A DNA stretch of 64,000 nt. Origin: an uncultured archaeon (GTDB lineage Archaea > Asgardarchaeota > Thorarchaeia > Thorarchaeales > Thorarchaeaceae). The stretch covers positions 47,367 through 111,366 of the forward strand of contig CAYYQL010000006.1 in assembly GCA_964473825.1 (NCBI GenBank), read 5' to 3'. The position numbers and the translations under genes are program-made. Every line of letters starts with the position of its first letter. The stretch's first letter is position 1. The notes under the pieces are model-generated. The model did no database searches. It was not told the DNA's origin and saw only the letters and a program-made list of their open reading frames with translations. This document shows positions 1,753 through 62,297 of this stretch, piece by piece.

Positions 1753-2624
1753 GACTTCTGAGTAGGCACAGTATCAGGTCTGAATTGAGCAAGTATGGAG
1801 TAAGGCCTAAGAAGAGCTTAGGGCAGAGTTTCCTTGTTGACAGCCGAATCGCCCAACAGATTGTCGATGCAGCAGAGATAACTGATGATGAATCTGTACT
1901 GGAGATAGGAGGCGGTCTAGGAATTCTCACTGAGTTACTGGTTTCTAGAGCTAAGAAGGTCTACGTGGTTGAGATTGACAGGGATCTAGTACTGGCCCTT
2001 ACAGAGAAACTGGGAGATGCTGACGGGCTCTCTATCATACATGGCGACATTCTGAAGATTGACTTGCCCGATGTATCCAAAGTGGTTTCGAACCTTCCAT
2101 TCAGTGTTTCCTCCCCCATCACTTTCAGACTACTGAGAGAACTGAAGCCCAAAGTCTCTATTCTCACATATCAGAAGGAATTCGCACAGCGACTAATAGC
2201 AGAACCAGGTTCGAGAGAGTATTCGCGTCTCACAGTCACAGTAAACTATCTTGCCGAAGTGGAACCTCTTTTTGAGGTGCCATCAGAGTCTTTCTATCCG
2301 AAACCTGCGGTTGACTCACTTGTCGTCAGGATGACCCCTCGAGAGAGTGGTGCGTGGGCGAAAGACAACAGGGTCTTCTATTGGATGATACGAGGCCTCT
2401 ATTCATACCCAAACAAACAGCTGAGACGAGCATTACGAATCTGGTTGAAGAATATAGATATGAAAAGAGATATGGCCGATGATATTCTTGATTCAGTAGA
2501 ACAGGTTGATAGTAAGGCACGACTAAGAAGTCTCACTATCAATGAACTGGTGTGCTTGTCAGACCGAATCACCTCTCTGATTGAAGAGGGGATAATCCCT
2601 CACCCTGAGGAAGCAAAGACATGA
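1749..2624 (+). CDS. rsmA: 16S rRNA adenine dimethyltransferase RsmA/KsgA
   Basis: KKSLGQSFL, LEIGGGLG, VSNLPF, QKEFA.RL motifs. Confidence 0.95.
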   Translation: MRLLSRHSIRSELSKYGVRPKKSLGQSFLVDSRIAQQIVDAAEITDDESVLEIGGGLGILTELLVSRAKKVYVVEIDRDLVLALTEKLGDADGLSIIHGDILKIDLPDVSKVVSNLPFSVSSPITFRLLRELKPKVSILTYQKEFAQRLIAEPGSREYSRLTVTVNYLAEVEPLFEVPSESFYPKPAVDSLVVRMTPRESGAWAKDNRVFYWMIRGLYSYPNKQLRRALRIWLKNIDMKRDMADDILDSVEQVDSKARLRSLTINELVCLSDRITSLIEEGIIPHPEEAKT

Positions 2625-3229
2625 AAGACAGCAATCACAGGATTGCGGTCCAAGACCACGTGTATCCTCCATCGGAAGACACGTTCCTTCTGCTAGATGC
2701 AATAGAAGTTGCTCCCGACGAGTCATTTCTTGAGGTGGGATGTGGAAGTGGCTACATCCTTGTCAATGCAGCCACAATCTCATATCGGATAATTGGGCTG
2801 GATTGCTCCTTTGAGGCCGTGAAGAACACAAAGCAGAACCTCTTACACAATGACCTATACGAAAAGGCGGAGGTGTTTGTTTCGGATCTCTTGAAGGCCA
2901 TCGCGCCAGATTCTCGTTTCGACGTGATTGCATTCAACCCACCCTATCTCCCTTCGGATGAAGATAGGACAGAACTCGACCATGCATTGGTTGGGGGGAT
3001 TAGGGGGACAGAAGTAACTGAGAGATTCTTACAGCAGGCAATGCAGCATGTTTCGCCAGAGGGAAGAATCTACACCATGGTCTCCTCACTCTCCGACTAC
3101 GGTCGCTTCGAGAGATTAGTGGAGAATGAAGGTTTTGAGATGACAACCGTCCAGACTGGTGTATTCTTCTTTGAAAGACTGTCTGTGATTGGAGTAGCAT
3201 CCTCAAGGAAATCATTTTATAAGACCTAG
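2621..3229 (+). CDS. HemK2/PrmC-family glutamine methyltransferase
   Basis: VYPPSEDTFLL, LEVGCGSG, FNPPYLP. Confidence 0.92.
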   Translation: MKDSNHRIAVQDHVYPPSEDTFLLLDAIEVAPDESFLEVGCGSGYILVNAATISYRIIGLDCSFEAVKNTKQNLLHNDLYEKAEVFVSDLLKAIAPDSRFDVIAFNPPYLPSDEDRTELDHALVGGIRGTEVTERFLQQAMQHVSPEGRIYTMVSSLSDYGRFERLVENEGFEMTTVQTGVFFFERLSVIGVASSRKSFYKT

Positions 3230-3274
3230 AGTGAGGGCCGCTGAGTGTAACAAGGCCGCAGGAGTAGTATCCCT

Positions 3275-4039
3275 TTGTCAGAAAAGAAGCCTAAGAAATC
3301 ATCCAAGAAGAATAAGAAGACCAAGACAGAGAAGACTGTCAAGGACAACAGCCTCATCTATGTGGACTACGTAGCTAGGACTAAGGAAGAAGGGCAGATT
3401 TTCGATCTGACAAATGAGGATGTGGCAAAGAACGAGGGGCTCTACAATGAAGACACTCGGTATGAACCGATGCTTGTAGCGGTCGGACAGAACTGGTTGC
3501 TTGAAACCGTAGAAAAGGAACTTGTAGGCATGAAGGTCGGAGAGAGTAAGACGATCGAAGTTCCGGCTGAGAAAGGAGCAGGAGCAAGAGACCCTAAGAA
3601 AATCAAATCCATACCACTCCTCAAACTCAAGAAACAGGGAGTTGTCAGCCCCATGAAAGGAGATAGGGTCAAGTTCGGCAATGAAGAGGGAATCGTGACC
3701 CTTGTTACGGGAAGAAAGGCGCGCATCGACTTCAACAGCCCACTTGCAGGCAAGACTCTGGTTTTCGAGGTCACCATAAGGGAGATCCTCACCAGAATGA
3801 AGGACAAGATAGCAGCTGTAATCAAGCGTCGAGTCCCAGCTCTCCCAGAGGACAAGTATGATGTTGCCATCAAGGCCGGGACCATAACCATCGAGCTTCC
3901 AAAGGAGAGCCGTTACATCGAGGGTATACAATACGCAGAGATTGGAATAGCCGCAGATGCTCTCAAAGTGAATGAGAAAGCACAAGAAGTGAAGTTTGTC
4001 ATCACTTACGAGCGCCCAGAGAAACCAAAGGAAGAATAG
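3275..4039 (+). CDS. slyD: Long-type FKBP peptidyl-prolyl isomerase (SlyD-like)
   Basis: GMKVGE.K.IEVP, IDFNSPLAGKTL.FEV. Confidence 0.9.
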   Translation: MSEKKPKKSSKKNKKTKTEKTVKDNSLIYVDYVARTKEEGQIFDLTNEDVAKNEGLYNEDTRYEPMLVAVGQNWLLETVEKELVGMKVGESKTIEVPAEKGAGARDPKKIKSIPLLKLKKQGVVSPMKGDRVKFGNEEGIVTLVTGRKARIDFNSPLAGKTLVFEVTIREILTRMKDKIAAVIKRRVPALPEDKYDVAIKAGTITIELPKESRYIEGIQYAEIGIAADALKVNEKAQEVKFVITYERPEKPKEE

Positions 4040-4153
4040 CCATCGGTGAACATAGTAATGTCCGCTGCAAAAACCTTTTAATAGGTTCGAAAATGCCCTT
4101 CTATTGTCACTAGTTCTCCAAGGCACAACTTCGTTGATAGGGAGTTACTTGAT

Positions 4154-4789
4154 ATGGAACAGCAAACGAAGCCACCGGAAGAATTGAAGACCGGAACAAC
4201 AACAGTTGGTCTCATTGCGAAGGACTGCGTGGTTCTTGCCAGCGATCAGAGAGCCACAATGGGCTACCTGGTAGCTAGCAAGACTGCCAAGAAGATCTAC
4301 AAGATCACCGACAGGATCGGTGCAACCATTGCCGGTTCTGTTGCCGACGCACAAACAATCATGGATCTCCTGAAGGCCGAGGCAAAACTCTTCGAGATTC
4401 AGAGAGAACGACCAATGAAAGTCAAAGCATTGACTAGGCTTTTGAGCAATATCATGTTTCAGGCGCGCGGCGCCTACATCCTTCAGTGCCTTGTGGGAGG
4501 CTTTGACGACGAGGGACCACAGGTCTACTTCAATGACTTCATCGGATCCGTCTTGTCAGACAAGTACACATCGACAGGCTCTGGTTCGCCGGTTGCCTTT
4601 GGTGTGCTTGAGGCTGGCTATGAAGATGATCTTCCAAAGGATAAGGCGATTGAGCTGGCCGTCTCCGCTATTGCCTCAGCCATCGAAAGAGATGCTGCAA
4701 CAGGAAATGCAATCCTTGTCAGCGTCATTGACAAAGATGGATACCAAGAGTTGGACAGGGAAACCATAGACAGAATCTGGAAGAAATAG
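4154..4789 (+). CDS. psmB: Proteasome beta subunit
   Basis: Propeptide then KTG/TTTVG, GSVADAQ, TGSGSP. Confidence 0.97.
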   Translation: MEQQTKPPEELKTGTTTVGLIAKDCVVLASDQRATMGYLVASKTAKKIYKITDRIGATIAGSVADAQTIMDLLKAEAKLFEIQRERPMKVKALTRLLSNIMFQARGAYILQCLVGGFDDEGPQVYFNDFIGSVLSDKYTSTGSGSPVAFGVLEAGYEDDLPKDKAIELAVSAIASAIERDAATGNAILVSVIDKDGYQELDRETIDRIWKK

Positions 4790-4914
4790 AGATCCGGACT
4801 TTCTCGTTCCTCGGGACAGATTGATTCATAATCTGTCTGAACTCAGCCCCGTGGTGGGGAGCCTTTAGTGAACCAAGGGGATACTATAAGCCCACAACAA
4901 AGAAGTGACTCTAG

Positions 4915-6825
4915 ATGGGTTCTAACAACAATAACCACGTAGATATAAGAGAGGCAGTGCTGAAAGCACTACCTCGCTCTGCAGCCATAAGCTCAGTTGA
5001 ATACGAGGGGCCAGAGATAGCAATCTACTCCAAAGCACCTAAGATTCTACTTGACGATGGTAATATGATCAAATCACTTGCTCGCAAGATGAGGAAGAGA
5101 TTGGTTGTCCGGTCAGCCCCTGAGGTGAGACTAGGGCATGAAGAAGCCGAAAAGACGGTGCGGGAGCTGGTTCCGGATGATGCAGAAATCACATCAATTG
5201 ACTTTGACGAGTCACGTGGTGAAGTGATTATTGAAGCACAGAAACCGGGTCTTGTCATAGGGAGAGGAGGATCTACTCTACGCGAGATTACTCGGCAGAC
5301 ATTCTGGCGTCCGAATGTTATGAGGACTCCACCCATTGAGAGCAAGCTCATCAAACAGATACGATACATAAACCAATCTGAGGCTGCCACCCGTAACAAG
5401 TCATTCAGAGAGATAGGTAGAAGGATACACCGAGCTCCATTGTTTGACAATAGCTGGATTCGGTTGACAGCCCTAGGTGGCTTTAGGGAGGTTGGGAGGC
5501 AATGTATGTTCTTGCAGACCTCAGAGAGCAATATACTGATTGACTGTGGTGTTAATGTCGGTACACCTAGTAAGGCATTTCCAAGGCTTGACATGCCCGA
5601 GCTAAGCGTTGACAAACTGGATGCCGTAGTCATCAGCCATGCGCACCTAGACCATTGTGGCATGGTGCCCTTCCTATTCAAGTATGGGTATAGAGGCCCG
5701 GTGTACATGACCGCTCCTACACTCAACCTCTCAACGCTCCTACAACTCGACTATCTAGACGTTGCAGAGAGAGAAGGAAAACTTCGCCCCTATCGTGATA
5801 GAGACGTGAAAGAGGCCATTCTGCATACAATACCCCTCAGCTATGGAGAGGTCACAGACATCGCGCCAGACGTGAGACTCACTCTGCATAATGCGGGCCA
5901 TATTCTCGGCTCGTCAATCATCCATCTCCACATAGGCGACGGGCAGTATAACCTGGCCTACACGGGTGACTTCAAGTTTGGAAGGTCGCGGCTTCTTGAG
6001 CCAGCAACATTCACATTTCCAAGACTCGAAACACTGATTGTGGAGAGCACATACGGCCATCCAACCGACAAGATGCCACCGAGACAGGAGGTAGAACGAA
6101 GGTTTGCATCTCTGATCAAGAAGACCATCGGCCGTGGCGGAAAGGTCCTCATTCCTGTACTTGCAGTAGGAAGAGCCCAAGAGATTATGCTGGTACTAGA
6201 GGACCTAGCATCAAAGAATAGGATTCCTCGTGTGCCCGTATATATAGAAGGGATGATTGCACAAGCAACAGCAATTCATACCACTCATCCTGAGGCTTTG
6301 AGCAAGAAGATACGTGAGATGATTTTCCATCAGGGCGTGAACCCGTTCCTTAATGATATATTTGTGCAAGTAGACAATCCGGATCAGAGAGAAGAGATAG
6401 TTGAGGGTGAGCCCTGTGTGATTATGGCTACTTCAGGCATGCTTGCCGGAGGACCCAGTGTTGACTATTTCAGGCTCCTAGCCCCAGAGGAGAAGAATAT
6501 GATGATGTTTGTGAGCTATCAGGGTGAAGGCACTCTTGGTCGTCGAATTCAGAAGGGGTGGAAAGAGATACAGATGAGGAATCGAGAGGGAAATACCACC
6601 ATGGTTCCGGTCAACCTTCAAGTTGAAACTGTTGAGGGTTTCTCAGGTCACTCGGATAGGAAACAGATTCTCAACTTCGTGAAGCGCGTTCAACCCCACC
6701 CAGAGAGGGTTCTGACATGTCATGGTGAAGCGTCGAAGTGTCTGAACCTGGCGTCTACAATACACAAGGCTCTCAAAGTAGACACAAAGGCCTTGATGGT
6801 CACAGAAAGCGTGAAACTGCGATAG
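4915..6825 (+). CDS. fttA: beta-CASP ribonuclease aCPSF1/FttA (KH + MBL + beta-CASP)
   Basis: KH KPGLVIGRGG, SHAHLDH, AGHILGS, FSGHSD, CHGE; follows psmB. Confidence 0.97.
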   Translation: MGSNNNNHVDIREAVLKALPRSAAISSVEYEGPEIAIYSKAPKILLDDGNMIKSLARKMRKRLVVRSAPEVRLGHEEAEKTVRELVPDDAEITSIDFDESRGEVIIEAQKPGLVIGRGGSTLREITRQTFWRPNVMRTPPIESKLIKQIRYINQSEAATRNKSFREIGRRIHRAPLFDNSWIRLTALGGFREVGRQCMFLQTSESNILIDCGVNVGTPSKAFPRLDMPELSVDKLDAVVISHAHLDHCGMVPFLFKYGYRGPVYMTAPTLNLSTLLQLDYLDVAEREGKLRPYRDRDVKEAILHTIPLSYGEVTDIAPDVRLTLHNAGHILGSSIIHLHIGDGQYNLAYTGDFKFGRSRLLEPATFTFPRLETLIVESTYGHPTDKMPPRQEVERRFASLIKKTIGRGGKVLIPVLAVGRAQEIMLVLEDLASKNRIPRVPVYIEGMIAQATAIHTTHPEALSKKIREMIFHQGVNPFLNDIFVQVDNPDQREEIVEGEPCVIMATSGMLAGGPSVDYFRLLAPEEKNMMMFVSYQGEGTLGRRIQKGWKEIQMRNREGNTTMVPVNLQVETVEGFSGHSDRKQILNFVKRVQPHPERVLTCHGEASKCLNLASTIHKALKVDTKALMVTESVKLR

Positions 6826-19460: not shown

Positions 19461-19568
19461 GGGCCGATAGTCTAGCCCGGCTATGATACCGCATTGACAT
19501 AAGTCATTGATTTCCAATTTCTTTCAAAGGTGCGGTGGTCGCTGGTTCAAATCCGGCTCGGCCCACCA
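19461..19568 (+). tRNA. tRNA-Val(GAC) with 30-nt canonical intron (19500-19529)
   Basis: Acceptor GGGCCGA/TCGGCCC; CCGCA-TTGACA^G-TGCGG; BHB helix TTGA/TCAA; CCA. Confidence 0.93.
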
Positions 19569-32949: not shown

Positions 32950-35900
32950 TCAGTGAAAGAAACCATCCAGAACCTCGAAGAACTCTTCCATGTTCACTAT
33001 GTGAAATCTAGTCCAGTTTCCCTCCTCCAATAGCTGCAGAATGCTATCTACTACCTCATCACCACTGACACCTCGTGGAAGCTCCCATGAAAGAGAGTCA
33101 AGAATCTCATCTGCCTCTCCAGCTCGTCTCACCTCCAAAGTGAGCGTCCTCCTCTGCAAGTCAGCCTCCAGTCGGGCGGGCATTTCTCCATCCCTCAGGC
33201 CCCGCTTCTCAAGTGCGCTTCTGATTCGAGTGCGCTGAGCTTCTGGATCATAGATCGATTCTTCCGGAATCTCTGACGTGATATTCCTCCAGAGATCATC
33301 TAAGACATCTGAGAGCTCTCGGACTACTTCCAATTCATAGGTGAATGAGCGGTTCTTCCAGTATTCACCCGTCAGACTAGATAGAGCTGTCCACTTGAGC
33401 CAGTCATCTCTGATGGTCAAAGATATCTCCCACCTCTGCTGCTCAGCTCGAAGATAGGTCCCAGTTTTCAGAGATGAAACCTTGAGTCCACTCTTCCGCA
33501 GAATCTTTCTAATGAGTGGGCTCTCGCGGAAGACCAAGCTCTCTCGCTGAAGGTCTGATGGAAGAATCACATTGACCGGGTGTATCTTGGAATCAAAGAC
33601 TATGCTCTCGGATCCGAGTCGGAGGATGATCTCTCTATCAGTGAAAAGGCCGCAGAAGACGTCCAACATTTCCTCATTCTCTCCCTCAAGAGTTGACTGC
33701 CAGCATCTGCCATGTTCCTTCCCCTCTCCCGAAGCCAGTGGACACTCGTTCTCGTTGTGGGATAGTCGAAAGCTGAGCTCCTTACCACAGGGGAGGGCGT
33801 GTAGGTCCGCTACTCTGGCCGGTAATCGGATATCGGCTGTTTCGGGAATGAAGGTTTCACTGACATTCGCCATGAGTGAGAGATCTCCATATTCGATGCC
33901 ACTAAACCGATCCCAGAAGACCATTTGCCCAGACGATAGTCTCACAGGTAGGCCCTTGCGAGTAAGGGTCAATGTATCGATGAGATTTGGCGTGAAGTGA
34001 TGCTCTATCATCTGCAGGGACTCATCATCTTCGTTCTTGATGTCCACTCTGCATCCCTCATCTGTCCATGACAGCTCCACTGACACATGTGTCTGCCCTT
34101 GAATCCGACTGAGGACACGTTCAATAGCCTTTTCGAGTCGATGAGATAGACTGGCTGGAACCAGGATATCAGTAGATCTTCGTGAGATTGGTTCTGAGAT
34201 AGGATCTTGTCTAGTGGCCCGGAGCATCGCGATTGAGCCCGTTGGTCTACCAGGGATGAAGTCGAACGAGCTCCTTAGAATCCAGTCTGACTCCTCTGTT
34301 TCTCTTGTCCAGAACAACCAATTCTCACTGTTTTGCTGGAGAGCCAGAGAGATGCGAGACCCTGTATCTATGAGTTCGCGGACACTGTCAGTGTGCTCTG
34401 AGATATCACTCTCAGCCCATTGCATCCCATCAGGACGGGTAGCCAGCCTTTTGTTGAAGAAGCCCACAAGGACTCTAGCAGGATTCCTCGGGTCTTCCAG
34501 TGCAACAATGCTGATTGGTTGATCAGGGTCCTCTGAGTAGACTATCTGACCAAAGCTGGCAATCCTGGGTTTGGGAGATTCAACAGTCTTAGGATAGGAG
34601 TCCCTCGCCTTGGACTTGTTCTGCTTGGGGCCACGATAGAGTCGGTGAGCATTAATCTGGCCGAGGAAGATATCGGCAAATGCCTTCTGCCTTTTTGTGC
34701 GAGGAGGACGATACATGAGCCTATGCAGTAGAGTGGGTACATCTGTCGGCTCACGGGAAAGAGAACGTCTTGTTATTGTCAGACCTTCCATAGACTCATG
34801 AAACTCATTGAAGAAGTCACGGAGAGCATCTGAGAAACTCACACCGGGTGAAACCTCTGTGTTGGGCCACAGGTCAGCCAACCAAGGAAGCAGGCTCATG
34901 GCCAGCGACCTGATCCGGTCTCGAACCCACGCCTTCGGTACAGCCTGTTCCTGTGGTTCAGGTATCTCTGTCTTGGCCCGATCATATTCTTCGGTTCTGA
35001 ACTTGGCAGTCCAGTGTCTGAGAACCGGGATGTGCAAAAGTGAGCTCTCAAACCCGAAGGACGACTGGGCCACCACGACTCTTATGTCATCAAACATGGG
35101 ACTTCGAGGAGCAGACTGACGGTGCCACGAGTCCGGGTCGATGACTCGTTCAGGCGCACATGGGAGGTTCCATATGATCTCATCCAGTTCACCCACAAGG
35201 GGAGAGGTATCACGCACAGGAATCAGGCAGTTGGTCGAGTAGATTGGAGTTCTTCTCTCATACTTCACCGGCCTGGAGAACCAGAGGATGGTTGTCTGTT
35301 CGTCATCGGATAATCGGTCTACCAGCTCCGCCAGCAAGCGGTTCATGCGGTCTCGATACAGTGAGGGCGTTGAGCTTTCAATCGCGTCCCACCCTGACAC
35401 AACTAGCAGACGGGGCTGTTTCACCTTGTCTTCCAACACCCGCGACAGGTCAATCATCGGGCCGCCATTGTAGAGATATGCCTGAATCTCAGCGAAGAGT
35501 GGTTTGAAATCTATGGAATGGAGGGTTTCCTGCACTGCATCTGACAGACCATTCTCGCCCGACCGCAGACGCGCCCTCAACCGAACCTCAGCAAGGGAGG
35601 TTGTGGAAAACTCGTCAGCCAAGTCAAGCCAGACAACACGGAGGTCAGGAGCGCCCTCTCGAAAGTCATGGATCATCTGCAGACCGTGATGATGTGCTGC
35701 AATCCAAGCAGCTGAGAGCCCTGCTGAGGTTGGAGATGCGGCGGCGATATAGAGAATGAAGCGTCGAGCACTGATGCCAGCACCGATCAGTGGGTCATAG
35801 GGCGGTTTCCATTCCGGTGGCACCGGCAACTCTCTGTAGTCTGGAGTGTGTTCTTGGTTGTGGACCACGAGGGCCATGCGCGGTCTCAGCCCATCCCTCG

Positions 35901-37533
35901 AAACCTCAAAGGCTATTCGTCGTCCAGACAGGTCTTCTGTCAGACATGACTCGAGCGCACTCAAGAGAAGCCCCCGTATCATTCGTCTGCTCTCTCTGCT
36001 CTCGTCGCTGGGGTCCATGACGAGTGTGGCACGAATCACCCTCGGAGGGCTCTCAAGATGAGCAATCGACCCAAAGACCTCAGACAGGGCCTCCGCATAA
36101 GCATCCAGCTGGGTAACGGTGTTCGGTTCAGGGGTGCCATCAACGACCTGTACCCACTCCTTAGGGCTGAGGGGCCGGAGAGAGAGCCTGAACCGTGGGA
36201 CCACCCGCTGGACCATCCCGTGCCGCTTCCGAGATGACGAAGGCCTTCGTTCAGGCTCCATATACCACTTGAACCCACAGCGGGTCTTGACCTCCACCAC
36301 CATCAGCGGACGCCAGAGGGTACGGAGACCTGTTGGTGCGGTCTCCCTTCTGAACACGACCAGGTCTGCCCTCCCCTTGCCCAGCGAGGTCCCCAGAGGT
36401 AGCTCTGCGACAATCCTGAGACCTCCTCCGGCCCCATCACGGTCATCGTCGCGGATGGCTCTCCGTACATCCAGAAACCGGTCGAATCTGTCCGTGATGC
36501 GCCTGTGGGCCTGGGCCCCCACCCTCTTCGTCCGTCGAACGGCACTCTGCCACAGGTGTTTCACATCATCACTGGTCAGGCGTGGTGCCTTCTTCTCGTG
36601 CTCGTCCGTCAGGACCTCGGACCCGCCTGACAGGATTCGGGCAAACTCCCCGGTCAGTACCGAATCCACCCCGGCCGCCTCCGCCTGCGCCAGCTGCTCC
36701 TCGAAGAAGTCCATGCTGAAACGGGGACGGGAATACGCCGCATGGGAGGACACGGTCTCAGGCTCACCCACCCGAACACCGTGGTGTGCCGCGATGTCAT
36801 CACGGATCTCCCGCAGCAGCCTGACCGTCCCATCCCTAAAGCCCGACGACCCATGCTCATGCTCGGTGTACAGGTGGTCGAGGTAGGTCCGTGCCCGCAG
36901 GATGAAGAGGTTGCTGTACCTCCGTGTGTCCCGCACCGACACATCGTGGATGTAGGCATCCGTGTTCAGGACCTGGATGTGCTGGCGCAGGGCGTCCATG
37001 AAGTCCAGCTCGGTGAGGAAGCGGTGGACAGGGGGATAGGCGGGGCAGCGTGCGTCGCCGGGATACCCCTGACCGATGTGCTCCCCGTTCTCGTTGAAGA
37101 GGGGCTGCGGCTGCCCCATGGGGTAGTAGATCGCCCCAGACTCCCGCAGAGCCGCGCCCCCAACGTTGAAGCGCTGGTTCAGGGGGCCCACATCCTCGTA
37201 CCACCGTCGCGCCCGCACGGTCTCGGTGCAGCCATAGAGGGCTGCGTTCTCCTCTAGCATGTCCAGACCATTCTTCCTGATGTTGTGCTCGGCCTTCATC
37301 ACGTGGCTGAAGTCCGGGGCACCCACCGCCCTCGAGATCTGGTAGGCCTCCGTGTACCGGTGCAGGATGTCACGGGAACTCTCGTACAGGTGGCGCGTGG
37401 TCGCGTTCCGAATCGTGCGCTGCAGGTACACAGCCGTGGACAGACCTGTCCTCATCGCCCGTGCCAGCACCCTGTTCGGATGCCTCGGGTACGGCCTCGC
37501 CCGCGGGCCACGGCTCCCTCTCATTCGCGCCAC
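32950..37533 (-). CDS. 1527-aa multidomain protein: PD-(D/E)XK (RecB-like) nuclease plus degenerate RecA/P-loop-like region
   Basis: E-LPL...GRADLVVF...VVEVKT...QLDAY; ASPTSAGLS and LLVVSGW at Walker A/B-like positions. Confidence 0.65.
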   Translation of the reverse strand: MARMRGSRGPRARPYPRHPNRVLARAMRTGLSTAVYLQRTIRNATTRHLYESSRDILHRYTEAYQISRAVGAPDFSHVMKAEHNIRKNGLDMLEENAALYGCTETVRARRWYEDVGPLNQRFNVGGAALRESGAIYYPMGQPQPLFNENGEHIGQGYPGDARCPAYPPVHRFLTELDFMDALRQHIQVLNTDAYIHDVSVRDTRRYSNLFILRARTYLDHLYTEHEHGSSGFRDGTVRLLREIRDDIAAHHGVRVGEPETVSSHAAYSRPRFSMDFFEEQLAQAEAAGVDSVLTGEFARILSGGSEVLTDEHEKKAPRLTSDDVKHLWQSAVRRTKRVGAQAHRRITDRFDRFLDVRRAIRDDDRDGAGGGLRIVAELPLGTSLGKGRADLVVFRRETAPTGLRTLWRPLMVVEVKTRCGFKWYMEPERRPSSSRKRHGMVQRVVPRFRLSLRPLSPKEWVQVVDGTPEPNTVTQLDAYAEALSEVFGSIAHLESPPRVIRATLVMDPSDESRESRRMIRGLLLSALESCLTEDLSGRRIAFEVSRDGLRPRMALVVHNQEHTPDYRELPVPPEWKPPYDPLIGAGISARRFILYIAAASPTSAGLSAAWIAAHHHGLQMIHDFREGAPDLRVVWLDLADEFSTTSLAEVRLRARLRSGENGLSDAVQETLHSIDFKPLFAEIQAYLYNGGPMIDLSRVLEDKVKQPRLLVVSGWDAIESSTPSLYRDRMNRLLAELVDRLSDDEQTTILWFSRPVKYERRTPIYSTNCLIPVRDTSPLVGELDEIIWNLPCAPERVIDPDSWHRQSAPRSPMFDDIRVVVAQSSFGFESSLLHIPVLRHWTAKFRTEEYDRAKTEIPEPQEQAVPKAWVRDRIRSLAMSLLPWLADLWPNTEVSPGVSFSDALRDFFNEFHESMEGLTITRRSLSREPTDVPTLLHRLMYRPPRTKRQKAFADIFLGQINAHRLYRGPKQNKSKARDSYPKTVESPKPRIASFGQIVYSEDPDQPISIVALEDPRNPARVLVGFFNKRLATRPDGMQWAESDISEHTDSVRELIDTGSRISLALQQNSENWLFWTRETEESDWILRSSFDFIPGRPTGSIAMLRATRQDPISEPISRRSTDILVPASLSHRLEKAIERVLSRIQGQTHVSVELSWTDEGCRVDIKNEDDESLQMIEHHFTPNLIDTLTLTRKGLPVRLSSGQMVFWDRFSGIEYGDLSLMANVSETFIPETADIRLPARVADLHALPCGKELSFRLSHNENECPLASGEGKEHGRCWQSTLEGENEEMLDVFCGLFTDREIILRLGSESIVFDSKIHPVNVILPSDLQRESLVFRESPLIRKILRKSGLKVSSLKTGTYLRAEQQRWEISLTIRDDWLKWTALSSLTGEYWKNRSFTYELEVVRELSDVLDDLWRNITSEIPEESIYDPEAQRTRIRSALEKRGLRDGEMPARLEADLQRRTLTLEVRRAGEADEILDSLSWELPRGVSGDEVVDSILQLLEEGNWTRFHIVNMEEFFEVLDGFFH

Positions 37534-37777
37534 TCTCTCTTCGTGCAGAAAACTATCGTATATGCTGTGACCATATCAAATGTTGGCTTAATATTTTTCG
37601 ATTGATATTTTCAGGCTTAGAGAACGAATAGACTAATTCAACTAGTTGTTTATTCAAATTGCTTCATAACTTTATATGCTTTCATACTTACTCATTGTAG
37701 GAGTTCAAAACGGCCCTGCAAGCACAAGGAGGCGAGTGAACTCCACTTAGTGGACTATCAGAACTTTATATGCGAAG

Positions 37778-39463
37778 ATGATGGCGATGGTCAAGTCCCA
37801 GGAACCAGTAATCACGGTCAAGATTCCCATCAACTGGGAGGAGATGACCGCGAGGGCACAGCAGCGACTGCGCCAGATGGTGGGACGTGACACCAGAGTC
37901 ATCCGAGCGTTCTTCGGGATCATCGAAGAGAACGAGGAACAGCTCTTGAGGGGGAGAAACAGGGACCGGATCGATGAGAACAAGCTGCATGCTATGACCA
38001 TGACTGCCCTGAAGGTGAGCAAGGGACAAGAAGAACGTCCTGAGGTAGAGCACGACCTGAAGGAGCAGTTCCCGAGAATATCAGCAAACGAGCTGAGTGA
38101 GTGCCGCAAGGTGGCTGTTGCGAATTACGAGAGTTACCTGGCCTTGAAGAGGAAGCGATGGCGGAAGGCGTCACGACCCAGTGAGGTGAATCGGAGCCAG
38201 CGGATACCGAGAAGAATCTTCATTCCGTATCGGGCTGAGCTGGTTCATCATAAGAGCACTGTGGCAACGTGGTGGCTGGAGCTGCGTGACTCCCTGGACT
38301 CGGTCCCTGAACGACGGCGGGTACATGATAGACTGACGGTGCCGCTGAAGACCTCCCCCTTTCACCTTGAGCAGCTGGACAGGGGAGATAAGAAGTCTGT
38401 GCAGGTGTTCACGGACAGACGGGGGAAGTGGTGGGCAGCGGTTGCTGTGCGATTGCCCGGGGTCGAGGCTGAGTCAGAATTGCCACCTGCAGTGTTGGGA
38501 ATCGATCTGGGAATCAACCGTGCGGTCTGTACGACGTTGGTGACGCCCTCAAAGGTCTCGGAGACCCGGTATTTTGTCCAAGAACATAAGGTCAGACTCA
38601 TGAAGAAGTATGATGACCGATTTGCCGACCTGCAGCGGGAACTTCAATTCTGTAAGGCTGACACGGAGCGGCACGATAACGTGGCTGCTAAACTCCGGAG
38701 CCTTCGCTCCAAGCGAGAACAGGTCTCCAAGGAGTACGACAGGCTAACCGTTAGCAGACTCATCTCGTATATCGAGGAGCTGTCACAGAAGTGGATGGTC
38801 TACGTGGCAATAGGCCGCGTCAAGGGCATCCGCAACACTGCTCGAAAGGGGAACTACAAGGGAAAGAAATTCAGAGGGATGGTGCATCGCTGGAGCTTCG
38901 GGCGGGTGACGCGCACGCTAAAACACGGGCTCGAGCAGCGAGGCTGGAGAACCGAGGGAAGGAAGAGCCGGTTTCATGTTGTCCCTGAGAACTGGACCTC
39001 CATCACCTGCTGGAAGTGCGGCCATCGAGGTGTTCGTCCCAAGCAGTCTCTGTTCATCTGCCATACTTGTGGGTTCAGAACGAACGCTGACAGAAACGGT
39101 TCCCTGAATATCGCGCGTCGATTGATCACGCTCATTCCGTCACTTACGAATGAGAACGGACTAGGGCGGTGGGCCACTCCTCAGCGGGAGCTCGGCTCAG
39201 CCCCGAAGGCTGTGAGGAAGACCCGTTCTTCTAAGCAGAAGTCCGAACTTGCTCGCAATGGCCCGGCATCAGGCCAGAGCAAGTCCGCGGTGGTTCGCCC
39301 CACTCAGATGAGTATCCTTGACTTTGGTGACGAAGTTGCGGGTGGCGATGATGATAGTGCCGTGGGAAGAGCTGTGGAAACACTCTCTGCTTCCAGCAAT
39401 GATGCGGCTGAGTTAAAGCAGGAGAAGGAAGCTCGGGTTACAGGAGGGACCGTGTCCCAATGA
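37778..39463 (+). CDS. tnpB: TnpB/Cas12f-like RuvC protein, copy 1, rearranged active site
   Basis: VLGIDLG (RuvC-I), VAIGRV (Gly at RuvC-II), VPENWTSITCWKCG..CHTCG zinc ribbon, NADRNGSLNI (RuvC-III). Confidence 0.85.
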   Translation: MMAMVKSQEPVITVKIPINWEEMTARAQQRLRQMVGRDTRVIRAFFGIIEENEEQLLRGRNRDRIDENKLHAMTMTALKVSKGQEERPEVEHDLKEQFPRISANELSECRKVAVANYESYLALKRKRWRKASRPSEVNRSQRIPRRIFIPYRAELVHHKSTVATWWLELRDSLDSVPERRRVHDRLTVPLKTSPFHLEQLDRGDKKSVQVFTDRRGKWWAAVAVRLPGVEAESELPPAVLGIDLGINRAVCTTLVTPSKVSETRYFVQEHKVRLMKKYDDRFADLQRELQFCKADTERHDNVAAKLRSLRSKREQVSKEYDRLTVSRLISYIEELSQKWMVYVAIGRVKGIRNTARKGNYKGKKFRGMVHRWSFGRVTRTLKHGLEQRGWRTEGRKSRFHVVPENWTSITCWKCGHRGVRPKQSLFICHTCGFRTNADRNGSLNIARRLITLIPSLTNENGLGRWATPQRELGSAPKAVRKTRSSKQKSELARNGPASGQSKSAVVRPTQMSILDFGDEVAGGDDDSAVGRAVETLSASSNDAAELKQEKEARVTGGTVSQ

Positions 39464-39568
39464 CGGTGGCCGAAGCTCTTGCTTGCTCTGGGGTGGCTCC
39501 CAGAAGTAGCGGTGACGCTGGGCAAGAGAAGAGCGGAACACAGAAGTCCAACCAGCGGAGTTCACTCA
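39305..39568 (+). ncRNA. Putative omegaRNA/reRNA scaffold of TnpB copy 1 (5' boundary approximate)
   Basis: Several stems covary with 41190-41453, including GNRA hairpin AGCG-GTGA-CGCT; overlaps the gene 3' end. Confidence 0.65.
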
Positions 39569-39683
39569 ACCCCAGCCATGGGAGTACACTTTGTCTTCTG
39601 AAGAGCAAAGCCATGCTTTTTCTCTTGCTGCAGTTGATCGATTCCGCAACTGGACTGTTAGTAAATAGGCTGAGGCGACGACG

Positions 39684-41795
39684 ATGGCGGCTGCTACGAA
39701 CCCTAGAATCGCGGTAAAGATACCGATTGCATGGGAGAGCATGTCGTCTTCTTCTCAGCAACACTTGGAACAGATAGTGGGTAGGGACTCCCGAGCAATC
39801 AAGAGGCTCCTGGGCATCATTGAACACAATGAGGATGATCTACTCTGTGGTAAGAGAAGGAACAAGGTGAGCCTGGGGCAACTCAACAGAATCACCATGA
39901 CTGCGACGAGGGGAAAGGCCAACCGGACCAAGGTCCCGCATGACCTGAAGGTTGACTTCCCGCGGGCCTGTGCCAGCGACCTCGCTGAGTGCGTCAAGAC
40001 AGCTGTCAGTCTGTACAACAGCTACCTTGCCCTCAGGCAGAAGAGGGGGTGGAGAGCGTCCCGACCCTGTAAGTCGAACTCCTCAGGACGTATCCCTCGA
40101 TGGATGTTTCATCCCAAGTCCTTCCGATTGGTTCAGCATGAGAACACGACTGCGCGGTGGTGGATGTCCCTGAGGGACTCGATGGACTCGAACCTTGAGG
40201 ACAGGTTGCGCCATGACAGGCTCATGATTCCCCTGAAGATGTCCCCCTTCCATGAGAACCAGCTCCAGCGCGGCGAGGTCAAGGCTGCACAGGTCTTCAC
40301 TGACCGGCTGGGAAAGTGGTGGGTCACGATATCCGTTCGTCTGGCTGAGACTCCAGAGGTCAGCGACGAGAACCCACCTGCTGTGCTAGGAATAGACCTG
40401 GGGATTGAGAAGGCTGTCTGTACCACTCTTGTCACCCCTGAGAAGGTGCGCGAAACGCGCTACTTCACACAGCAGAAGAAGGTCCGTCTTCTGAAGCAGT
40501 ATGATGACAGAGTCGCAAGTCTGCAGAGCGAGATGGACCTGAAAAAGGCTCGCGGCCAACGCTATGATGGTGTTGCAGAGAGACTGCGCTCTCTCAGAAC
40601 CAAGAGAGAGTCCGTGTCCAAGGAACACGATCGCGTCCTGCTCCGGGAACTGATCGACTACATCCTGGAGCTGAGTGAGAGGTATACACTCTTTGTCGCG
40701 ATTGGCAGGCTCAAGAACATCCGAAATAGTGCCAAACGCGGTGACTGGAAGGGCCGAAGGTTCAGGGGCATGGTCCATTCATGGGCCTTCGCTCGGATAA
40801 CCGAGGGACTTCGACGACAGCTCGGTCAGCTGGGTTGGCCTGTTCTGGGTAAGAAGTCGCGGGTCCACGCAGTCCCTGAGGCATGGACATCCATCATCTG
40901 TTGGAAGTGCGGGCAGAGAGGAACCAGACCCAGACAGAACCTCTTTGTCTGCTCCTGTGGAAACAAGTGCAATGCCGACAAGAACGGAGCCATCAACATC
41001 GCCGGACGCCTCATTACGCTCACAGAGTCACTCAATTCTGTGAGAGGACTAGGGAAGTGGGCTAGTGCAGCCTCTGCACGACGCACGCAACTGAAAGCCC
41101 GGAGGAAGACATCTTCCAAGGGGAGGTCCTCACTCTCAGGGCGCGATGCCTCATCTCATCGCGGAGAGTCCGCGGCTGTTCACTACGCTCAACCGAGCCT
41201 CCTCGACTTCGGTGACGAGGCTGAGGTGAGTGATGACGGTCCAGCCGTGGGAAGAAACGTGGAAAGACTCTCTACCGCTGGAACAGATGAACCAGCAGAA
41301 AAGGTAGGAGAAGGAAGCCAAGACAGGAAGAGAAGTGCCACTTCTATGATGCCTGACAAAGACTCCATCCCTCCCCGTCGCCAGACAGGGAATGGTGGCA
41401 ACACCGGGTGGAGAAAGGGTGGAACACGTAAGTCAACTAGAGAAGCCCACTCACTCATCAAGGGAGCCGCAACACCACTTCGAATGAATAGGAGAAGAGA
41501 AGCATGGATGGTGCGGCCACCGGGAATCGAACCCGGGCCCCATGCTTGGAAGGCATGGATCCTGACCACTAGACTATGGCCGCTTCACAGAGAGCTGACA
41601 GCCCATAGTCGATTTAAGGCTATTGCAGTGGCGCCGCGAGTTGACAGTCCGGGGAGTGGAAGGTGGATCCTTGCCTTGGAGGTCCGACACTCTTTCAGAC
41701 CATGCATCTGGCTGAAGGTCATACGAAGACCAGTTCATCATGTCGAGCAGAACAACAGATATCTGGAGGAGAAGCAGACAAGAGGAGCGCGCTGA
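39684..41795 (+). CDS. tnpB: TnpB/Cas12f-like RuvC protein, copy 2; homology to copy 1 ends near 41300 and the tail to 41795 follows a 1-nt insertion
   Basis: VLGIDLG, VAIGRL, VPEAWTSIICWKCG..CSCG, NADKNGAINI; collinear with copy 1. Confidence 0.82.
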   Translation: MAAATNPRIAVKIPIAWESMSSSSQQHLEQIVGRDSRAIKRLLGIIEHNEDDLLCGKRRNKVSLGQLNRITMTATRGKANRTKVPHDLKVDFPRACASDLAECVKTAVSLYNSYLALRQKRGWRASRPCKSNSSGRIPRWMFHPKSFRLVQHENTTARWWMSLRDSMDSNLEDRLRHDRLMIPLKMSPFHENQLQRGEVKAAQVFTDRLGKWWVTISVRLAETPEVSDENPPAVLGIDLGIEKAVCTTLVTPEKVRETRYFTQQKKVRLLKQYDDRVASLQSEMDLKKARGQRYDGVAERLRSLRTKRESVSKEHDRVLLRELIDYILELSERYTLFVAIGRLKNIRNSAKRGDWKGRRFRGMVHSWAFARITEGLRRQLGQLGWPVLGKKSRVHAVPEAWTSIICWKCGQRGTRPRQNLFVCSCGNKCNADKNGAINIAGRLITLTESLNSVRGLGKWASAASARRTQLKARRKTSSKGRSSLSGRDASSHRGESAAVHYAQPSLLDFGDEAEVSDDGPAVGRNVERLSTAGTDEPAEKVGEGSQDRKRSATSMMPDKDSIPPRRQTGNGGNTGWRKGGTRKSTREAHSLIKGAATPLRMNRRREAWMVRPPGIEPGPHAWKAWILTTRLWPLHRELTAHSRFKAIAVAPRVDSPGSGRWILALEVRHSFRPCIWLKVIRRPVHHVEQNNRYLEEKQTRGAR
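41190..41453 (+). ncRNA. Putative omegaRNA/reRNA scaffold of TnpB copy 2 (5' boundary approximate)
   Basis: Stems CTACC/GGTAG, AGAAGT/ACTTCT, CTCCATC/GGTGGAG and GGTG-GCAA-CACC match copy 1 positions with compensatory changes. Confidence 0.65.
41509..41583 (-). tRNA. tRNA-Gly(TCC), intronless
   Basis: GCGGCCATAGTCTAGTGGTCAGGATCCATGCCTTCCAAGCATGGGGCCCGGGTTCGATTCCCGGTGGCCGCACCA. Confidence 0.96.
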
Positions 41796-42530: not shown

Positions 42531-43472
42531 ATGAGTATAGAACGTACTGTGGATGACTATGTCATTCGAAACTATGGACATCTCGTCCTGAACACACCTC
42601 CAGAGTTTAACGAAGATTCGGGCCTGTGGATATCCAAGCTTCACTCGGACTACCCTATTCTTATCCAAGACGACCGAGAGAAGAAGAGACGAATTCAGTT
42701 CCTGAAGGTCAATGTTCTTGGTTACGTCACATTCACAGAGAAGCTACAGCTGGTGCCAGAGAAGACCACCACCGAAGAGGACCTTCAAGGGAAGTTGACA
42801 ACTTTTCTGGATATGTGGAGGTCATATGCAGAGAGAGTTGTGATATCGGCTACAGCTGATCGTGTTGCGGAGCTATGGGAAGTGTCCAGCGCATTGAATC
42901 CAATCTACGAGATTGTGAACTTCGTCTGGGACAATGAGTATGTGACCCTTGACTGCTTCGAGGGAGATAGGTCAAGAAGCAAACGCAAGGTGAAGCACTA
43001 TCTTTCATTGTTGGAAGATTTGAACCTCCTTCGGAAATATGAGGGTCGATATGTTGCTGGGAATCTCTTCGTGACTCTGAGAGCGCAGACGGGTCACTTC
43101 CAGGACTTCTTGACCAGTGTATATTCGGAGGTGTTACGTAAAAGATATCCGTATCTGAAACAGGTGGTGGGGCATAGCAGTCTTGAAACCGTCATTCATA
43201 TCGGGAACGTGGTATACTACCCTGAACTCTACGCTCGAGAAGCAGTTCCTCGAAACAAGAGTACACTTGTCGATGAATACGCGCTAGAGTATGGATCCCG
43301 TATTTCAGCCCCGAGATTGAGTGGCTATCTTCGTAAGTTGAGAGAGATTGAAGTGATTGAAGAAGAGAACGGACTGTACTCTGGTACGGATTCACTACGA
43401 GAGAAGATGTTTTCTATCCAGAAAGAGATGCAGTCACCGGATCAGGTCTGGGACATCCCCTGTCCCGTGTAA
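42531..43472 (+). CDS. Hypothetical protein (possible winged-helix modules)
   Basis: 313-aa ORF with GGAG RBS; YLSLLEDLNLL and YLRKLREIEVI wHTH-like ends. Confidence 0.7.
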   Translation: MSIERTVDDYVIRNYGHLVLNTPPEFNEDSGLWISKLHSDYPILIQDDREKKRRIQFLKVNVLGYVTFTEKLQLVPEKTTTEEDLQGKLTTFLDMWRSYAERVVISATADRVAELWEVSSALNPIYEIVNFVWDNEYVTLDCFEGDRSRSKRKVKHYLSLLEDLNLLRKYEGRYVAGNLFVTLRAQTGHFQDFLTSVYSEVLRKRYPYLKQVVGHSSLETVIHIGNVVYYPELYAREAVPRNKSTLVDEYALEYGSRISAPRLSGYLRKLREIEVIEEENGLYSGTDSLREKMFSIQKEMQSPDQVWDIPCPV

Positions 43473-62189: not shown

Positions 62190-62297
62190 GGGCCCGTTGC
62201 CTAGTCCGGATAGGGCGCCAGCCTTCTAACGAACCTGCACTTCGCAGGCTGTGAGGGTAGTTGGAATTCGAGAGTTCAAGTCTCTCCGGGCCCGCCA
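62190..62297 (+). tRNA. tRNA-Arg(TCT) with 30-nt canonical intron (62229-62258)
   Basis: Acceptor GGGCCCG/CGGGCCC; CCAGC-CTTCTA^A-GTTGG; BHB helix CTTC/GAGG; CCA. Confidence 0.93.

Follow-up and report, generated by a model that had tools for sequence, protein, structure and literature searches.

Two TnpB-family proteins with a displaced RuvC glutamate in a probable Asgard aCas1-TnpB element at a tRNA-Gly gene

Introduction

Does a TnpB-family nuclease of an Asgard archaeon whose catalytic glutamate has moved within the RuvC domain tell us something about the origin of the eukaryotic Fanzors, or does it belong to a mobile element of a different, already known kind? The question is raised by two neighbouring open reading frames (ORFs), ORF1 (TnpB1) and ORF2 (TnpB2), in a 64,000-nucleotide stretch of DNA from an uncultured Thorarchaeaceae archaeon (assembly GCA_964473825.1, contig CAYYQL010000006.1, positions 47,367 to 111,366), which is referred to below as the window. 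An earlier note on this DNA, made from the sequence alone, took the two proteins for an active clade of RNA-guided nucleases with a Fanzor-type active site, non-autonomous or domesticated, and relevant to Fanzor origins. The analysis reported here indicates, with good probability, that this TnpB pair with an alternative RuvC glutamate belongs to a known kind of Asgard aCas1-TnpB element lodged at a tRNA-Gly gene, and that it has no special tie to Fanzors. Coordinates of all features are collected in Table 1.

Results

A compensated rearrangement of the RuvC site

ORF1 and ORF2 are 55% identical across ORF1 residues 4-543 and ORF2 residues 1-535, and both match Pfam PF07282, the Cas12f1-like TNB domain. 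The WED-REC-RuvC-TNB architecture of TnpB proteins, with a C4 zinc ribbon between RuvC-II and RuvC-III, is present. The AlphaFold2 model of ORF1 has a mean predicted local distance difference test score (pLDDT) of 71.5 with a confident core, and its full-length fold matches Cas12f and TnpB structures in Foldseek (E values from 1e-14 to 1e-9 over about 460-480 alignment columns). As the earlier note had described, the Asp residues of RuvC-I and RuvC-III and the zinc ribbon are preserved in the two ORFs; in both, the RuvC-II Glu is replaced by Gly and a Glu appears 58 residues further on, six residues ahead of the first CxxC. Codon arithmetic reproduces exactly the positions that it gave for the Gly and Glu codons of both genes.

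In an alignment of 30 family members, D243, G346, E404, W406, T407, S408, C411, C414, C428, C431 and D438 (TnpB1 numbering) are invariant, a pattern far beyond chance; the alternative glutamate, on whose conservation in homologs the earlier note had made its reading depend, is thus among the fixed residues. The comparison was extended to 47 relatives, some with identities as low as about 20%. Every relative lacking Glu at RuvC-II has Glu at the alternative site, without exception, and the five of the 47 that have a canonical IxxE(N/D)L motif carry Pro or Ala at the alternative site (V-D/N-P-x-x-T-S). Since this exchange has no exceptions, it is a compensated rearrangement and not decay.

In the TnpB1 model, Asp243 stands at the end of strand 237-244 (beta-1), Gly346 lies within strand 340-348, Glu404 ends strand 399-404 just ahead of the zinc ribbon, and Asp438 starts helix 437-452. 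A shift of the glutamate from strand beta-4 to strand beta-5, likened to the arrangement in RuvX, has been described for rearranged TnpBs (Altae-Tran et al. 2023, PNAS; PMC10691335), and the strand placement of Gly346 and Glu404 corresponds to that shift. As far as sequence can tell, the RuvC acidic triad is complete in a compensated form (D243, E404 and D438), in which Glu404 would take over the role of the missing glutamate.

Rearrangements of this kind are known. RuvC-II is rearranged in two major clades and eight branches of TnpB (PMC10691335), and Gly or Pro together with an alternative Glu occurs in large prokaryotic clades, some of them archaeal (PMC10530073; PMC10691335). TvTnpB of Thermoplasma volcanium (an example of the rearranged prokaryotic "TnpB2" proteins; PMC10530073), the RIIr clades (PMC10691335) and the "Ealt, D-Phi-G" clade (PMC10711439) share with the Thorarchaeota proteins Gly at the old Glu site, Glu six residues before the zinc ribbon, a D-hydrophobic-G motif and NADxN. 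Jiang et al. reported that TvTnpB cleaves DNA and that cleavage by ApmFanzor is abolished by the E467A substitution (PMC10530073). In contrast to TvTnpB, which belongs to an IS605 element with a Y1 TnpA, TnpB1 has a giant Cas1-like protein as its partner (see below); TnpB1 is also about 100-150 residues longer, and its RNA scaffold is much longer.

The absence of the canonical RuvC-II Glu could also mean that TnpB1 and TnpB2 are nuclease-dead, domesticated regulators of the TldR kind or decaying pseudogenes. The age of the paralogs within single genomes fits this, as do the frameshifted C-terminus of TnpB2, its lack of a promoter and hairpin element and its degenerate end motif. TldR-like proteins, however, have lost their catalytic residues and are often truncated, whereas here the proteins are full length and no variation is seen in the two Asp, the alternative Glu or the four Cys; the Gly/Glu exchange is perfectly correlated, core codon positions show normal purifying selection, and enzymes with the same rearrangement cleave DNA (PMC10530073). 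We consider loss of function in this sense quite unlikely. By analogy with these enzymes, TnpB1 and TnpB2 are probably RNA-guided nucleases. Unlike type V CRISPR effectors (Cas12), which come with an adjacent array and CRISPR RNA repeats, they have no array in the window.

The family to which both proteins belong is, on the evidence of the searches, almost confined to Thorarchaeota and other Asgard archaea. A word-indexed search gave 640 matches; among the 120 of these listed, members are 450-621 amino acids (aa) long, most of them about 555-562, and all source names given are Thorarchaeota, Lokiarchaeota or Promethearchaeia, in agreement with the "Asgard-like archaeon" of the earlier note. 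An exhaustive search of 50%-identity representatives returned 58 sequences at E <= 1e-30 and 1075 at E <= 1e-3. A scan of species-representative genomes confirmed 132 loci, nearly all in Thorarchaeota metagenome-assembled genomes (MAGs), with at most eight loci per MAG. Neighbourhoods were compared for 80 fetched loci (labelled L0xx).

A structured RNA overlapping the 3' end of each TnpB gene

A structured, omega-like guide-RNA scaffold is predicted to overlap the 3' end of each TnpB gene. About 250 nucleotides (nt) of it are the end of the coding sequence and about 106 nt lie downstream of the stop codon, its length being about 330-400 nt; nucleotide conservation reaches just as far beyond the TnpB stop and falls after the motif GTTCACTCA. 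RNAalifold analysis of 69 aligned sequences yielded 71 pairs in 13 helices, 52 of them with compensatory changes. As many as 96.2% of cells are paired, versus 39-48% when the partners are slid by 1-3 columns, and compensatory cells number 498 versus 51-78 when slid; none of 500 shuffles reached the observed pairing values.

The same codons specify the C-terminal tail of TnpB1, which is predicted to be disordered (pLDDT below 35 from residue 470 in the AlphaFold2 model). Entropy at third codon positions is 1.47 for the core and only 0.82 for the tail. In 52 of 58 sequences, residues 509 and 512 read either V..D or A/T..S; Val/Ile never occurs with Ser nor Ala/Thr with Asp, and this switch matches the hairpin arms GTCC/GGAC or GCTC/GAGC. 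The tail codons are dual-coding for RNA helices, so the conserved look of the disordered tail is largely due to RNA constraint.

A Q-x-x-L-x-x-F motif in the tails of both proteins (39305-39330 and 41190-41215) was considered as a PCNA-interacting protein (PIP) box and rejected: its position 8 is Gly or Ser and not aromatic, and its codons form a covarying RNA hairpin, with the flanking residues changing between V..D and A/T..S in step with the stem. Since Q-x-x-L-x-x-F-G overlaps this hairpin, RNA constraint explains the motif without a role for PCNA.

A giant Cas1-like partner places TnpB1 in the aCas1-TnpB family

The earlier note saw no Y1 TnpA, serine recombinase or CRISPR array nearby. 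It is true that the whole window is free of CRISPR arrays and that neither a Y1 TnpA nor a serine recombinase is found among the only three ORFs in 32950-41583; association with these enzymes is not obligatory for TnpB. What that statement passed over is the third of these ORFs, which lies directly upstream of TnpB1 in head-to-head orientation and codes for a 1527-aa protein with a Cas1-like domain. Of the 80 fetched loci, about 50, mostly Thorarchaeota by name, have a homolog of this giant protein in the same divergent arrangement; these homologs are 24-88% identical to it, and complete genes mostly code for 1400-1900 aa.

Residues 1-560 of the giant protein were modelled with AlphaFold2 on the basis of 43 homologs, at a pLDDT of 84. 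In an all-against-representatives structural search (VIA), the 12 best matches were all Cas1 proteins, casposase included, with Z values of 9.4-13.2, root-mean-square deviations of 3.1-3.9 Å and 147-198 aligned residues, covering model residues about 9-240. Residues about 257-560 matched the DinG N-terminus, MGME1, Cas4, RecE, AddAB and RecB at Z 6-8.7. Foldseek, which is independent of the VIA search, also put Cas1 on top. Invariant residues compatible with the Cas1 domain (His170, Asp180 and Arg183) and the PD-(D/E)XK domain (Asp390 and Lys416) are present. Judging from these models, the giant Cas1-like protein is likely to be the integrase of the element.

The pairing of TnpB with aCas1, which is reportedly a protein from the work of Makarova et al. 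in the CRISPR J of 2020, has a published Asgard form. Altae-Tran et al. described aCas1-TnpB loci with two Asgard groups, Cas1H-Asgard-1 and Cas1H-Asgard-2, and a conserved GTTCACTCA that follows a variable stretch downstream of tnpB; they likened the hypervariable stretch before GTTCACTCA to the end of a CRISPR repeat (PMC10691335). The TnpB1 locus shares with the Cas1H-Asgard loci the Asgard host, the position of TnpB beside a very diverged Cas1 homolog and, downstream, the variable stretch with GTTCACTCA after it; repeats flank some of the loci. By sequence and modelled fold, TnpB1 and its giant neighbour thus match the published aCas1-TnpB kind, group Cas1H-Asgard. TnpB2 has no partner of its own, and this extra, partner-less copy sets the window apart from the published Cas1H-Asgard loci. 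Some details may go beyond PMC10691335: the fusion of Cas1-like and Cas4-like domains in proteins of 1400-1900 aa, the targeting of tRNA-Gly, the RNA with its 13 helices and the folding of the variable stretch into a hairpin.

Because of the conserved divergent giant gene and GTTCACTCA, the view that the TnpBs lack a transposase and are non-autonomous or domesticated fails for TnpB1, which is one half of a conserved divergent pair in an element at tRNA-Gly. Of the "active RNA-guided nuclease clade" proposed earlier, the membership in TnpB, the compensated RuvC-II and the guide-RNA scaffold hold, and activity is probable by analogy; it is the non-autonomous or domesticated part that has to be dropped.

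Association with tRNA-Gly

The 3' end of a tRNA-Gly(TCC) gene faces the element in the window, and on the comparative sequence evidence it is the presumed integration target. The same tRNA gene, likewise with its 3' end toward the element, follows the TnpB stop at a distance of about 125-140 nt in six fetched loci (L008, L009, L010, L012, L026 and L084); L084, L008, L009, L010 and L012 hold the closest relatives of TnpB1 (63-91% identity), and the TnpB of L026 is 54% identical. A 45-nt copy of the 3' part of the tRNA is found just beyond the stop codon of the giant gene in L084 and L009, so that tRNA sequence flanks a unit of about 6.7 kb on both sides. At positions 977-1155 of L084 (CAZLEV010000002.1), before the 45-nt partial tRNA-Gly, there is a 180-nt remnant of the 3' end of an L009-type element (82% identity). 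The element remnant together with the partial tRNA points to serial integration at one tRNA.

These observations suggest the following mechanism. TnpB1, the divergent giant gene and their shared control region would together make up a single element, about 6.7 kb long and situated at the 3' end of tRNA-Gly(TCC); the giant Cas1-like protein would integrate it. The complex of TnpB with its RNA would most likely cut copies of the target site that are free of the element, and such cutting may help the element to be retained or to home, as is the case for other TnpB elements.

There are casposons that target tRNA genes. The element resembles them in its place at a tRNA 3' end and in its presumed integrase of the Cas1 family, the casposase structure 6opm matching the giant protein at Z 11.2. 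Unlike casposons, it lacks a family B DNA polymerase, shows no obvious casposon-type terminal inverted repeats, and carries an RNA-guided nuclease with its RNA.

Element ends and upstream control region

The motif GTTCACTCA is found at the same offset downstream of TnpB in most related loci. The variable stretch before it is about 10-14 nt long and differs among the tRNA-Gly-linked relatives. Together with a downstream arm, it folds in about 60 loci into a hairpin whose loop contains GTTCACTCA; an AGGTCA-like motif comes next. The mean energy of this right-end hairpin is -10.8 kcal/mol for arms of the same locus versus -8.6 kcal/mol for arms combined across loci; in copy 1 of the window (39545-39600) the hairpin is weak. 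As a folding prediction, it argues to some extent against the published proposal (PMC10691335) that the guide lies in the variable stretch.

The variable stretch also bears on a different view of the pair, namely that the giant protein acts with TnpB in a defence or adaptive module that is fixed and has no array, and in which the Cas1-like enzyme writes the variable segment as a single spacer. The hypervariability of this stretch before GTTCACTCA, its likeness to a CRISPR repeat end (PMC10691335) and its differences among tRNA-Gly-linked relatives would agree with such a module, and so would the combination of Cas1-like and Cas4-like domains in one partner and the divergence of within-genome copies, which are not like those of an insertion sequence. 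The segment is, however, only about 10-14 nt long and forms a hairpin with the downstream arm in most loci; the tRNA adjacency, the partial tRNA repeat and the remnant of an older element speak for integration, and the family occurs in multiple copies, as many as eight loci being present in a single MAG. A fixed module is therefore quite improbable, and an integrating element is preferred.

The region between the giant gene and TnpB1 is conserved across 70 loci. Its two TATA-like boxes are of the conserved AAGTTTATATA type, one about 15 nt before the annotated ATG and the other about 105 nt upstream; the position of the proximal box fits a leaderless mRNA that begins at the family-consensus Met. 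The hairpin-forming element between the boxes contains GAGTGAAC, at -43 to -52 in most loci, which is the complement of the downstream end motif (direct repeat D6, inverted repeat I2). The inverted repeat 37734-37756/39545-39567 is 83% complementary. In L009 both arms of the GAGTGAAC/end-motif pair are changed to TTCATTC; in other loci only one arm changes. An ungapped comparison of the GAGTGAAC element with the right end showed no locus-specific covariation, with 6.5 for own pairs and 6.4 for cross pairs, values that a 1-nt indel confounds. The 50-nt hairpin-forming element may be a gene for a small RNA or else a terminal inverted repeat, and the complementarity may reflect either terminal inverted repeats or RNA-RNA pairing.

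TnpB2, a second copy lacking a partner

The end of ORF2 was previously placed at 41453. The frame has in fact lost the stop codon of the family and reads antisense through tRNA-Gly. Its C-terminus is frameshifted near 41296-41304, with a TAG of the ancestral frame at 41305-41307, and a read-through of 165 residues follows. This TAG goes back to a C-to-T change that is matched by a G-to-A change, resulting in a single AU pair at columns 268/299 in helix 9. The end motif is degenerate (CCCACTCACTCA, 41446-41457), and upstream promoters and a hairpin element are lacking. The catalytic residues and the RNA helices of TnpB2 are intact. TnpB2 on its own may be inactive, although the odds are somewhat against it.

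The two genes had been described as tandem paralogs, which suggests a local duplication. Local gene duplication was rejected as the origin of TnpB2, given that it is only 55% identical to TnpB1 and that its nearest relatives are only about 60% identical. Two adjacent TnpB genes on the same strand occur, among the fetched loci, only in the window; L033 has a second TnpB copy on the opposite strand, several kb downstream. On sequence divergence, TnpB2 is read as a diverged copy of another lineage that was left between the first element and the tRNA. Most likely, a second element would have integrated at the same tRNA and then lost its partner gene; a solo insertion is possible in view of the lack of a tRNA remnant between the two copies.

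Relation to Fanzors

Yoon et al. defined Ealt as a Glu six residues before the first CxxC, with the regular expression ExxxxxxCxxC (PMC10711439). The sequence E-NWTSIT-CWKC of ORF1 fits this expression exactly. The fingerprint of Fanzors and pro-Fanzors, the latter being cyanobacterial IS607 TnpBs, is Ealt together with DPG in RuvC-I, and a separate Ealt clade has D-hydrophobic-G (PMC10711439). In the family under study RuvC-I reads DLG (GIDLG), with D243, L244 and G245 invariant in 30 close homologs, and DPG was found in none of the 47 wider relatives. A PDB profile search with the family alignment matched TnpB (9nzp) at 5e-14, Cas12f at about 1e-12 and mimivirus Fanzor2 at 0.008, with no match to Fanzor1. 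In the Foldseek search with the TnpB1 model, mimivirus Fanzor2 ranks 22nd, and Fanzor1 is absent among the 50 best matches listed.

The term "Fanzor-type" is thus apt for the site in the Ealt sense, and it is not apt for RuvC-I, which is DLG and not DPG; moreover, Ealt is widespread in TnpB clades. For this reason Ealt alone gives the Thorarchaeota TnpBs no special tie to Fanzor origins. They have in common with Fanzor1, Fanzor2 and the cyanobacterial pro-Fanzors the TnpB superfamily fold and the alternative Glu. The DPG motif, the IS607 or eukaryotic transposons and the eukaryotic, giant-virus or cyanobacterial hosts of the latter apply to neither TnpB1 nor TnpB2.

An Asgard host invites the idea that the family is the direct prokaryotic forerunner or the closest archaeal relative of Fanzors, passed on through the Asgard ancestor of eukaryotes; the Ealt position is common to both, and Ealt sequences are separate from Ecan sequences in the tree of PMC10711439. 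Against this, all members have DLG where Fanzors and pro-Fanzors have DPG, and pro-Fanzors are cyanobacterial and of the IS607 type; the profile and fold searches put TnpB and Cas12f first, with Fanzor2 weak and Fanzor1 missing; and RuvC-II has been rearranged across the two clades and eight branches mentioned above (PMC10691335). Such descent is very improbable, and the claimed relevance to Fanzor origins is not supported: nothing in the sequences ties this Thorarchaeota family specially to the eukaryotic proteins.

Table 1. Coordinates of the element, its neighbours and related units (positions in the window unless a fetched locus, L, is named)
Feature	Position	Strand	Remarks
TnpB1 (ORF1)	37778..39463	+	561 aa; family-consensus start is the third ATG at 37787; residues 470-561 predicted disordered tail
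TnpB1 catalytic residues	38504-38506; 38813-38815; 38987-38989; 39089-39091	+	Asp243 (GIDLG); Gly346; Glu404; Asp438 (NADRNG)
TnpB1 zinc ribbon			Cys411, Cys414, Cys428, Cys431
TnpB2 (ORF2)	39684..41795	+	703 aa open frame; homologous part to about 41300; read-through across tRNA to 41795
TnpB2 catalytic residues	40395; 40704-40706; 40878-40880; 40977	+	Asp238; Gly341; Glu399; Asp432
Omega-RNA-like scaffold, copy 1	39210..39568	+	Predicted; 13 covarying helices 39210-39543; end motif GTTCACTCA 39560-39568
Omega-RNA-like scaffold, copy 2	41098..41457	+	Predicted; helices 41098-41429 kept, partly by compensatory changes; end motif degenerate
Giant 1527-aa partner	32950..37533	-	Head-to-head; start about 250 bp upstream of TnpB1
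Giant partner, domains			Residues about 9-240, Cas1 catalytic fold; about 257-560, PD-(D/E)XK (Cas4/RecB-like); about 1000 further residues without assigned fold
Intergenic control region	37664..37773	+	Two TATA-like boxes (37664-37679, 37758-37773) flanking hairpin-forming element 37700-37756
tRNA-Gly(TCC)	41509..41583	-	ARAGORN and Rfam; 3' end toward element; inside ORF2 3' extension
RNA-only unit, contig C19	L005 1396-1955; L088 about 4820-5380
RNA-only unit, contig C102	L006 1393-1948
RNA-only unit, contig C12	L007 1367-1886
Further giant Cas1-like paralog, contig C26	L096 4228-9009	+	Partner 1872-4034 (-)
Further giant Cas1-like paralog, contig C2	L097 4375-9042	+	Partner 2023-4179 (-)

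Related units in the source genome and neighbouring features

The source genome assembly is 3.27 Mb in size and 95.7% complete. TnpB1 and TnpB2 are its only full-length family members; fragments lie on contigs C17 and C81. Three dispersed RNA-only units of 520-560 nt, 89-93% identical to each other, are located on contigs C19, C12 and C102. They correspond to the omega-RNA-like region of a related TnpB, have a TTAAATA box of their own and short inverted ends (TCTGACAGA and TCTGTCAGA), and each keeps an open frame of 103 aa. The C19 unit stands between the cas4 and effector genes of a CRISPR-Cas locus (array at 1011-2744 of L088); the CRISPR locus of this genome is on a contig other than that of the window, and its repeat is unrelated. 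The RNA-only units may be orphan guide-RNA genes or derivatives resembling miniature inverted-repeat transposable elements.

Two further giant Cas1-like paralogs, on contigs C26 and C2, are 27-31% identical to the giant protein of the window. Each is head-to-head with a 720-aa TNB-domain protein that has a canonical RuvC-II (LENLK), the sequence SPAWTSQ and no alternative Glu; these pairs probably represent the other published Asgard aCas1-TnpB group. Because giant paralogs are also paired with TnpBs that have the canonical site, the Cas1-like/TnpB partnership is a conserved theme, and the rearranged site is the variant of one lineage.

The G+C content is 0.53-0.60 at 34-42 kb, versus about 0.46-0.52 over most other parts of the window. 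Downstream of tRNA-Gly, positions 42531-43472 code for a 313-aa protein with a weak winged-helix match. In L037 a homolog of it with 53% identity is situated just upstream of TnpB, and of the giant gene there only 154 aa are left. Rfam has two 105-nt tRNA matches that ARAGORN missed (19461-19565 and 62190-62294); these are probably intron-containing archaeal tRNA genes.

Discussion

The most probable answer to the opening question is that TnpB1 is the nuclease half of an Asgard aCas1-TnpB element at tRNA-Gly. Several observations weigh against this interpretation. The Cas1 likeness of the giant protein is one of modelled fold only, and Z values near 13 can arise from helical bundles. Pfam gave no match for this protein at E <= 0.01, and 20 of its homologs when scanned gave only scattered weak matches of single members; a PDB profile search and the ESM Atlas features yielded no usable match, and comparison with the source genome's own Cas1 by hhalign returned a probability of 0.5%. 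The role assigned to Glu404 is drawn from its topology and conservation and from published relatives. The window retains just about 10 nt of the left tRNA copy, and no remnant of an older element was found on the far side of either the giant gene or the tRNA. Between TnpB1 and TnpB2 no tRNA remnant was found, the best local alignment being of 8 nt with a score of 16 versus a shuffle mean of 15.4. Finally, recent bursts of transposition are not apparent from the sequences, since TnpB paralogs within one MAG are 52-85% identical; as to copy counts, these are limited by the collapse of identical repeats in MAG assembly and by the several loci that end at contig edges.

One may further speculate that the giant protein writes the variable segment before GTTCACTCA, which would make each aCas1-TnpB unit an adaptive system with one spacer. 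We regard this as very unlikely. If it were true, such a unit would be a living intermediate between transposon TnpB and type V CRISPR, and the dispersed RNA-only copies would be extra guides acting in trans.

Since both the rearranged TnpB site and the Asgard pairing of Cas1 with TnpB are already in the literature, the locus leaves the question of Fanzor origins unopened. Its value lies elsewhere: an intact element stands beside its tRNA target and has a long RNA scaffold with very clear covariation, and the same genome holds RNA-only derivatives and a family of canonical-site TnpBs with a giant partner. It is thus a good starting point for the study of cooperation between Cas1-family integrases and RNA-guided nucleases.

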